Below, one piece after another: positions 28,768-29,238 of a stretch of 29,879 nucleotides of DNA (the stretch's first letter is position 1; each line of letters begins with the position of its first letter). The stretch is from a virus (Duplodnaviria > Heunggongvirae > Uroviricota > Caudoviricetes). The stretch is from the IMG/VR virus record IMGVR_UViG_2537562092_000001, positions 1 through 29,879 of that record, one strand, 5' to 3'. The notes beneath the pieces were generated by a model, which did no database searches, had not been told where the DNA came from, and saw only the letters and a list, made by a program, of their open reading frames with translations. Position numbers and translations under genes: made by a program.

Positions 28768-28856
28768 CTTTGCAAACACCAGGAACGTGCAAAAACCAAA
28801 TATGTAGAACGCAATATTCATCATATCTCTGTGCATAAATCCTCCGTAACGGATGG

Positions 28857-29150
28857 TTATCTGCTGTCTTTTTTATATAGCTCCTTGAGCGTATCAAAGA
28901 CAATTTTCTTAACCATATCAGATTGTTGTTCTGCCATACGCTCTGCATCGTCAATGTAAACTGATGCAGAGCTTTGTTTAGCCAATGATTCTTCAATCGC
29001 TGCAATTATCTCTGAGTTCAGCGACCTGTTATTCATCTTCGCACACTGTTTAATTTTCGCGTGGAGTTCATGCGGAAGTCTCAAGTGAAACTGTGCCTCG
29101 TCGTATTTGCTGTACATCCTTGATGCCTCACCAGTTGGGTGGAATGGCAT
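28857..29150 (-). CDS. mnt: Mnt-like ribbon-helix-helix repressor (Arc/MetJ superfamily)
   Basis: C-terminal NDAERMAEQQSDMVKKIVFDTLKELYKK closely matches P22 Mnt (NDAERLADEQSELVKKMVFDTLKDLYKK). An N-terminal RHH segment is present. The true start is probably the internal Met at about 29117 (MYSKYDEAQFHLRLP...). Confidence 0.8.
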   Translation of the reverse strand: MPFHPTGEASRMYSKYDEAQFHLRLPHELHAKIKQCAKMNNRSLNSEIIAAIEESLAKQSSASVYIDDAERMAEQQSDMVKKIVFDTLKELYKKDSR

Positions 29151-29238
29151 CGTAACCTACTGGATAAATACTCAATAGTACCATTTCGGTATGCAATCTC
29201 TTCATGGTTGCATCATATCATTCGTCTGGAGCAATGAA

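Follow-up and report, generated by a model that had tools for sequence, protein, structure and literature searches.

A stand-alone Mnt-family repressor gene with a predicted cognate operator between gene 16 and the truncated tailspike gene of a P22-like prophage remnant

The interval between the gene 16 homologue and the tailspike gene of a P22-like prophage probably houses a stand-alone, autoregulated Mnt module, a minimal form of the 'ant moron', which would keep the former ant-promoter region silent. Our confidence in the regulatory details of this module is about even. The window, that is the entire stretch of 29,879 nucleotides analyzed here (IMG/VR record IMGVR_UViG_2537562092_000001, positions 1 to 29,879), carries the interval close to its right end. 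The last late-operon gene ahead of the moron (26770-28767, plus strand) is a 665-aa ORF for a gp16-type DNA ejection/transfer protein, the C-terminus of which is 97-100% identical to that of the mnt-flanking genes of related loci and 37% identical to P22 gp16; the annotation of its Sf6 homologue reads similar to P22 gene 16. Next follows, within the gene 16-tailspike interval and in the orientation opposite to the late operon, the mnt-like gene (28857-29117, minus strand), whose predicted 86-aa product is a ribbon-helix-helix repressor that has the tetramerisation helix of the Mnt C-terminus. The tailspike gene itself (29239-29481, plus strand) is reduced to about 81 codons comprising the head-binding domain (Pfam Head_binding 7e-48, residues 1-84), and its RefSeq entry is a pseudogene, 'phage tailspike protein, missing C-terminus'. 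It is interrupted by the end of an IS3-family (IS2-like) insertion sequence (29482-29879, minus strand), inside which the window stops; the ORF of this element (29493-29873, minus strand) matched Pfam rve_3 (3e-19) as well as rve, and RefSeq labels it 'IS3 family transposase, programmed frameshift'. The initial annotation, made from the letters alone, had mnt abutting the tailspike gene, which is correct for the tailspike start at 29239, but the gene found there is an 81-codon stump cut by the IS3-family element at about 29482.

Between the end of the gp16 gene (28767) and the tailspike start (29239), the minus-strand ORF at 28857-29150 was the sole Pfam-recognisable gene, and an overlapping 87-aa ORF matched no Pfam family. 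P22 Arc, Ant, SieA and Orf59a served as tblastn queries against the whole window and returned no homologue outside mnt's own region; sar is likewise absent from the window, along with arc, ant and sieA. Pfam and tblastn therefore agree with the initial annotation that the immunity I region is reduced to mnt alone, on the minus strand, and the Arc and Ant searches over the entire window argue against arc- or ant-like ORFs having been missed in other frames. A complete immunity I region, with arc and ant downstream of the Mnt operator, was not found in the window.

The gene product almost certainly belongs to the Mnt family of repressors, judging by its domain and structure matches. The 97-aa ORF at 28857-29150 matched Pfam Repressor_Mnt (PF11423; 3.3e-14, model positions 3-28 of 28) and, at residues 18-60, the Arc ribbon-helix-helix family (PF03869; 5.3e-14). 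The 86-aa protein matched PDB entries 1MNT (4e-18, residues 6-79) and 1QEY (1.6e-8), the Mnt repressor and its C-terminal (tetramerisation) domain, respectively, and PHROG family phrog_795 (5e-35). Both Pfam families and both PDB entries fit the earlier reading of the product as an Mnt-like protein with a ribbon-helix-helix fold. By the same matches, the C-terminal tetramerisation segment is present, the oligomeric state being a prediction. The family phrog_795 bears the label 'partition protein ATPase'. The same label is attached to Mnt homologues in RefSeq phage records (Sf101, ST64T, ST160, SE1, epsilon34 and others), which are 83-86 aa ribbon-helix-helix repressors; Mnt homologues in phage annotation are systematically mislabelled in this way.

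Translation of mnt most likely begins at the second ATG (29117-29115), giving 86 aa and making the 97-aa ORF too long. We prefer this start because the first in-frame ATG (29148-29150) falls within the conserved -10 hexamer TACGAT, whereas the second has a Shine-Dalgarno sequence (GGTGAGG) ahead of it, coincides with the P22 Mnt start in the alignment and is the one used by PGAP, whose CDS WP_000287050.1 has identical coordinates and 86 aa. The spacers of about 90 bp described at first hold for the 97-aa ORF (89 and 88 bp), but with the 86-aa start the tailspike-side spacer measures 121 bp.

By aligning the region upstream of mnt with the fully annotated P22 immI region, we found a predicted Mnt operator, the dyad (G)TACC-ATTTC-GGTA(T) at 29178-29192, at the position homologous to P22 O_mnt. 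The alignment with the annotated operator of P22 Mnt, AGGTCCACCGTGGACCT, holds in every column, and the centre of symmetry is shared. The core dyad TACC-N5-GGTA (TACCATTTCGGTA, 29179-29191) lies 62 nt upstream of the mnt ATG, and 29178-29192 reads ATACCGAAATGGTAC on the mnt strand. Here we depart from the initial annotation, which had seen no convincing Mnt-type operator palindrome in 29151-29238, since the dyad at 29179-29191 aligns with the P22 operator, is conserved and co-varies with the protein. Counted by itself the dyad is not significant: the exact TACC-N5-GGTA motif occurs once in the 30-kb window versus 0.2 times expected, and at least once in 18 of 100 shuffles. What gives it weight is that it sits at the homologous position, is conserved and co-varies with the protein. 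Among the 95 loci compared, 85 carry the dyad, once per locus and at the same distance from mnt. Across eight divergent lineages (among them VSe13, JEP4, Escherichia sp., Buttiauxella and Serratia), the columns that never vary read TACC, GGTAC, ATTG, TTACGATGC and GAGGCAT; these match both operator arms, the -35 and -10 elements and the ribosome-binding site, while the bases between the arms and toward the tailspike vary. Taken together, a cognate dyad is predicted just upstream of mnt's own promoter, as is characteristic of the family.

A genome-wide search for Mnt operators, proposed in the initial annotation, was run in the window for TACC-N5-GGTA and returned this one site and no additional ones. 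The complete Sf101 and JEP4 sequences likewise contained no exact dyad other than the one at mnt, and one-mismatch dyads were not enriched (9 versus 5.6 expected; 7 versus 5.6). A Citrobacter sp. locus (L012, 3501-3752) has an mnt copy with an in-frame stop (MYSK*DEAQ...) and an operator arm changed from GGTA to AGTA; a second Arc/Mnt-like gene and an Ant-like fragment lie further downstream in this locus.

The operator half-site changes together with the N-terminal recognition strand of Mnt. Four classes were distinguished: RDDPHFNFRMP with GGTCCAC-C-GTGGACC in P22, Pluralibacter and Pectobacterium; RDDPQFNLRLP with AGACCAC-N-GTGGTCT in Gally and phage L; RDDPQFNFRMP with ATATCAC-C-GTGATAT in Phlomobacter; and YDEAQFHLRL with TACC-N5-GGTA in the class of the window. 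Overall, the window protein is 47.5% identical to P22 Mnt over 80 residues by tblastn and 47% identical by protein alignment. The base-contacting positions of P22 Mnt, the recognition residues of which Knight and Sauer reportedly worked on, are R2, H6, N8 and R10. The residues of the window protein aligned to them are Y, Q, H and R, so that three of the four differ. The operator specificity of P22 Mnt (GGTCCAC-N-GTGGACC) is thus not matched by the window class, in which both these residues and the half-site TACC are different, and we regard the latter as a distinct predicted specificity class within the family. The paired changes in β-strand residues and half-site could feed into studies of DNA recognition by ribbon-helix-helix proteins.

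Downstream of the dyad in the direction of mnt, a putative mnt promoter (29149-29175, minus strand) aligns with P22 Pmnt. It consists of a -35 element TTGAGT (29170-29175), a 15-nt spacer and the -10 element TACGAT (29149-29154), the spacer being suboptimal owing to a 2-bp deletion in the window type. Scores were obtained with a simple sigma-70 scheme, the top hits of which in P22 were the annotated Pmnt (13.1) and Pant (15.5). The Pmnt homologues of the window, JEP4, Gally, Buttiauxella and phage L scored 8-10.5; a score of 8.0 was matched somewhere in 27.5% of shuffles, and no promoter score in the interval is significant alone. The case for the promoter relies on constant position and invariant hexamers and not on scores: the +1 of the Pmnt homologue, predicted near 29142 in the window, is located about 43-45 nt from the operator centre in P22, the window, JEP4, Gally, a further locus (L010) and phage L. 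On the opposite strand, the positional homologue of P22 Pant, an ant promoter remnant directed toward the tailspike (ATGGCA-17-AATACT, 29144-29172, plus strand), scored 5.7, versus 15.5 for P22 Pant and a median best score of 6.7 in shuffles. In JEP4, Gally and phage L it scored 3.9 or less, or was absent. The Pant homologue thus appears degenerate, and the strong rightward promoter of a P22-type region is not predicted in the interval. A minus-strand call, CTGACA-17-AATGAT, was the sole flag of a simple scan and was not relied on, scores being insignificant.

We propose that an Mnt tetramer would bind the dyad via its N-terminal β-strand, and that the differences at three of the four P22 contact positions would give it a new specificity. 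Bound Mnt would adjoin the -35 of Pmnt and cover the former Pant start region, thereby regulating its own synthesis and keeping any residual tailspike-directed transcription off in the lysogen. Lying antisense to the late operon, mnt would be expressed from the prophage and not together with the late genes. This model draws on the identification of Mnt by Pfam, PDB and PHROG, on an operator that aligns with that of P22, is conserved and co-varies, and on a Pmnt homologue that occurs at a constant offset in all arc/ant-less lineages, with invariant -35, -10 and Shine-Dalgarno sequences. It also draws on the purifying selection on mnt, with a pN/pS of 0.20 and only one of 85 close homologues not intact (84 of 85 are); in general, the gene is not simply rotting. 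With operator and promoter conserved in spite of the missing antirepressor, the orphan Mnt probably still binds DNA for some purpose. Several points weigh on the other side, among them the insignificant promoter score, the suboptimal 15-nt spacer and the R25C substitution of the window copy described below. The operator and promoter assignments are based on homology and conservation. In addition, a second candidate mnt-sense promoter, with the extended -10 TGATATGAT (29212-29220), is located upstream of the operator in the window type only, and its use would make Mnt a plain autorepressor. Finally, a gene that merely regulates itself has no obvious selective value, yet mnt is under purifying selection, which points to some output beyond self-control.

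The prophage in the window is itself a dead remnant. The right 17.4 kb of the window are 100% identical to E. coli DETEC-P829, in which the phage genes set in with a scaffold gene truncated by a transposase (window about 19.7-20.1 kb) and extend from the coat protein to the tailspike only; early region, terminase and portal are missing. With the early region absent, an antirepressor would have nothing to induce here. In DETEC-P829, the tailspike gene is cut by the IS3-family element, beyond which there is a further truncated fragment, followed by gtr-type genes, intS and tRNA-Arg; this context beyond the right end of the window is taken from DETEC-P829 only. The remnant in that genome (L096) occupies the argW/intS/yfdGH site, of the CPS-53 type. 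Window positions 4451-12437 (8 kb) are not collinear with DETEC-P829, which has about 2.3 kb instead, including the group II intron gene ltrA; a 1165-codon minus-strand ORF (window 7385-10882) lies in this stretch. Because of this non-collinear stretch, we consider the genome of the window related to DETEC-P829 but different from it. The Mnt module of the window is most likely a still-intact passenger, not working for a live phage.

A remnant prophage invites the view that mnt is simply what has so far escaped deletion from a decaying immI region, with no remaining role, as the authors of the phage L study hold possible for their orphan gene (10.1101/2020.10.05.325894). Two further observations would fit: the Mnt of the window carries a unique R25C substitution (codon 29043-29045) at a position that is Arg in 80 of 85 homologues, and the Citrobacter copy is a pseudogene. 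Nevertheless, we judge this view to be quite improbable for the gene as a whole, given the selection signature and the number of intact copies described above, the invariance of the operator arms, -35, -10 and Shine-Dalgarno sequence across genera, and the retention of the gene in the viable phages Sf101 and IME10. As a separate observation, codon 25 has also changed independently elsewhere, to Leu in two loci and to Ser in one, and position 25 seems unusually changeable.

An autoregulated module, our preferred reading, also has to be weighed against the view that mnt, operator and tailspike gene form a functional unit in which Mnt controls transcription into the tailspike gene, originating from a weak promoter that took the place of Pant or from read-through. 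As a corollary, the control of ant in P22 would be a special case, created by the insertion of arc-ant between operator and tailspike. The geometry is suggestive, as mnt is directly divergent from the tailspike gene in all the arc/ant-less lineages examined (the window type, VSe13, JEP4, Gally, phage L and Buttiauxella), and any transcript that reaches the tailspike gene would have to cross the operator; moreover, an effect of the P22 ant moron on tailspike levels, possibly via Mnt and Arc, has been suggested (PMC2629481). We nonetheless find this control of the tailspike improbable, since a convincing tailspike-directed promoter was not found in the interval (scores of 5.7 or lower), Sf6 and others express their tailspike without mnt, and 12 of 80 relatives tolerate a homing-endonuclease insertion of 0.6-0.7 kb between operator and tailspike gene. 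There is a small but real chance of a broader scenario, in which mnt-operator-tailspike would be a general, possibly ancestral P22-like module, the diversifying Mnt classes gating transcription into the tailspike gene or acting in trans as an immunity determinant against relatives that share the operator, and arc-ant would be derived. If so, the window would carry a previously uncharacterised class, YDEAQFHLRL with TACC-N5-GGTA.

The inserted homing-endonuclease genes encode 179-180 aa HNH_3 + AP2 proteins and, lying on the mnt strand, separate the mnt control region from the tailspike gene (for example L009 2830-3369 and L048 2827-3369, plus ten other IMG/VR loci). In these loci, a duplicate of the first tailspike codons remains beside the operator, and the real tailspike gene has a new N-terminus. 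Two different endonuclease sequences share the one insertion spot.

In the stretch from the operator to the ribosome-binding site of the tailspike gene, the tailspike leader additionally contains a stem-loop or palindrome, ATGCAATC...GGTTGCAT (29191-29213, plus strand). It combines an inverted repeat with a predicted stem, and 96.6% of cells pair in 13 distinct relatives. One compensatory change, from G-C to U-A, was observed, and a U-A/U-G/C-G series fits an RNA in the tailspike sense. Other hairpins occupy this place in JEP4-type loci, phage L and Sf6, those of the JEP4-type loci and Sf6 being analogous to it. We rejected the idea that the hairpin is an intrinsic terminator, as it has no T-run on either strand and only modest stability (z = -1.1), and a terminator scan of the interval found none.

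The initial annotation had raised the prospect that an orphan repressor might act on an incoming phage. In this scenario, Mnt would be retained to repress the ant promoters of superinfecting P22-like phages with the same operator specificity, sparing the resident prophages an induction by antirepressor. For P22, it is established that Mnt from the prophage acts in trans on genomes that enter the cell. The scenario would account for purifying selection on mnt in the absence of ant, and a diversification of specificity classes is what would be expected of immunity determinants. What is missing is the target: none of the about 95 loci of the class has a TACC-N5-GGTA operator with arc/ant beside it, the relatives inspected for such a target being 80 of 414 in IMG/VR, and arc/ant occurred only with P22-type Mnt (L013-L015). 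The Rha and KilA antirepressor-like genes of JEP4 and of a Serratia locus (L011) do not fill this place, since they lie on the far side of mnt in convergent orientation; in JEP4, they adjoin a separate C2-like repressor gene. The Sf101 and JEP4 genomes each have a single exact dyad, at mnt, and the prophage remnant of the window cannot be induced. We therefore consider such immunity in trans unlikely.

The initial annotation had further described a spacer on either side of mnt, which needs amending for the left spacer. There, a conserved, unannotated 25-codon ORF (MHRDMMNIAFYIFGFCTFLVFAKLF, 28759-28836, minus strand) with a strong Shine-Dalgarno sequence, GGAGGA, follows mnt at a distance of 20 nt and runs into the gp16 stop. 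The ORF encodes a hydrophobic peptide that matched nothing in PHROG or NCBIfam, and its reading frame is uninterrupted in each of the 76 loci in which it occurs, with a pN/pS of 0.24 and 11/6/16 polymorphic sites at the three codon positions. It may specify a small membrane protein expressed from the prophage. The ORF is also present in Sf6, which lacks mnt, and beside gp16 in Gally, far from mnt, and it is absent from Sf101. A type II toxin-antitoxin pair of mnt, as a ribbon-helix-helix antitoxin, and the 25-codon ORF was considered, given the small hydrophobic ORF behind mnt, and rejected, as the two genes are inherited independently in Sf6, Gally and Sf101.

The comparison of this interval across P22-like prophages that the initial annotation had called for was carried out and revealed the layout gp16-mnt-tailspike in 53 of the 80 IMG/VR relatives examined (out of 414) and in phages Sf101 and IME10. 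Of 5426 complete E. coli genomes, 138 carry at least 80% of window positions 28700-29500. The arrangement, widespread in prophages of E. coli and Shigella, is a common, documented variant of the immunity I/ant moron region of the P22 family. The ant moron has been defined as a variable, independently expressed set of genes between the homologues of gene 16 and gene 9 (Villafane et al. 2008, PMC2629481), and the interval of the window fits this definition, mnt being common to the morons of P22, L and Gally. Orphan mnt genes without arc/ant have been described for ST64T/ST104 (PMC2629481) and phage L (10.1101/2020.10.05.325894), and the suggestion that such a gene might have gained a different function has already been published for phage L (10.1101/2020.10.05.325894). 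Both the layout and the speculation about a new function are thus in the literature; what we add is the analysis of the operator and of the specificity classes. The conservation of an operator and a promoter in the absence of an antirepressor makes the phage L question, 'new function or remnant', directly testable.

Among the closest known counterparts are Sf101 and IME10, both complete, viable phages. They have the same gene, with 99% protein identity for Sf101 gp14 (mis-annotated as 'partition protein ATPase') and 97% for the unannotated IME10 copy, and they share its 121-bp control region and its position right next to the tailspike gene; Sf101 differs in having another, longer gp16-type gene and in lacking the 25-codon ORF. 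Sf6 shares a near-identical gp16 3' end, the 25-codon ORF and the tailspike 5' end, but has neither mnt nor the operator, its interval being 164 bp. In phages L, ST64T and ST104, mnt is divergent from the tailspike gene and unaccompanied by arc, ant and sieA, as in the window. An additional gene, orf62, separates gp16 from mnt in these phages, and their Mnt, of the RDDPQFNLRLP class, is about 47% identical to the window protein; in phage L, a retained dyad operator, the perfect 17-bp palindrome AAGACCACGGTGGTCTT, lies between mnt and the tailspike gene. The P22 immunity I region, described in PMC2629481, has the order sieA-orf59a-mnt / O_mnt-Pant-Pmnt-O_arc / arc-sar-ant. Compared with it, the window is without arc, sar, ant, sieA and orf59a, its Pant homologue appears degenerate and its half-site is TACC and not GGTCCAC. 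Shared with P22 are the position between gene 16 and the tailspike gene, the antisense orientation, the two-domain protein, the place of the predicted operator and the offset of Pmnt.
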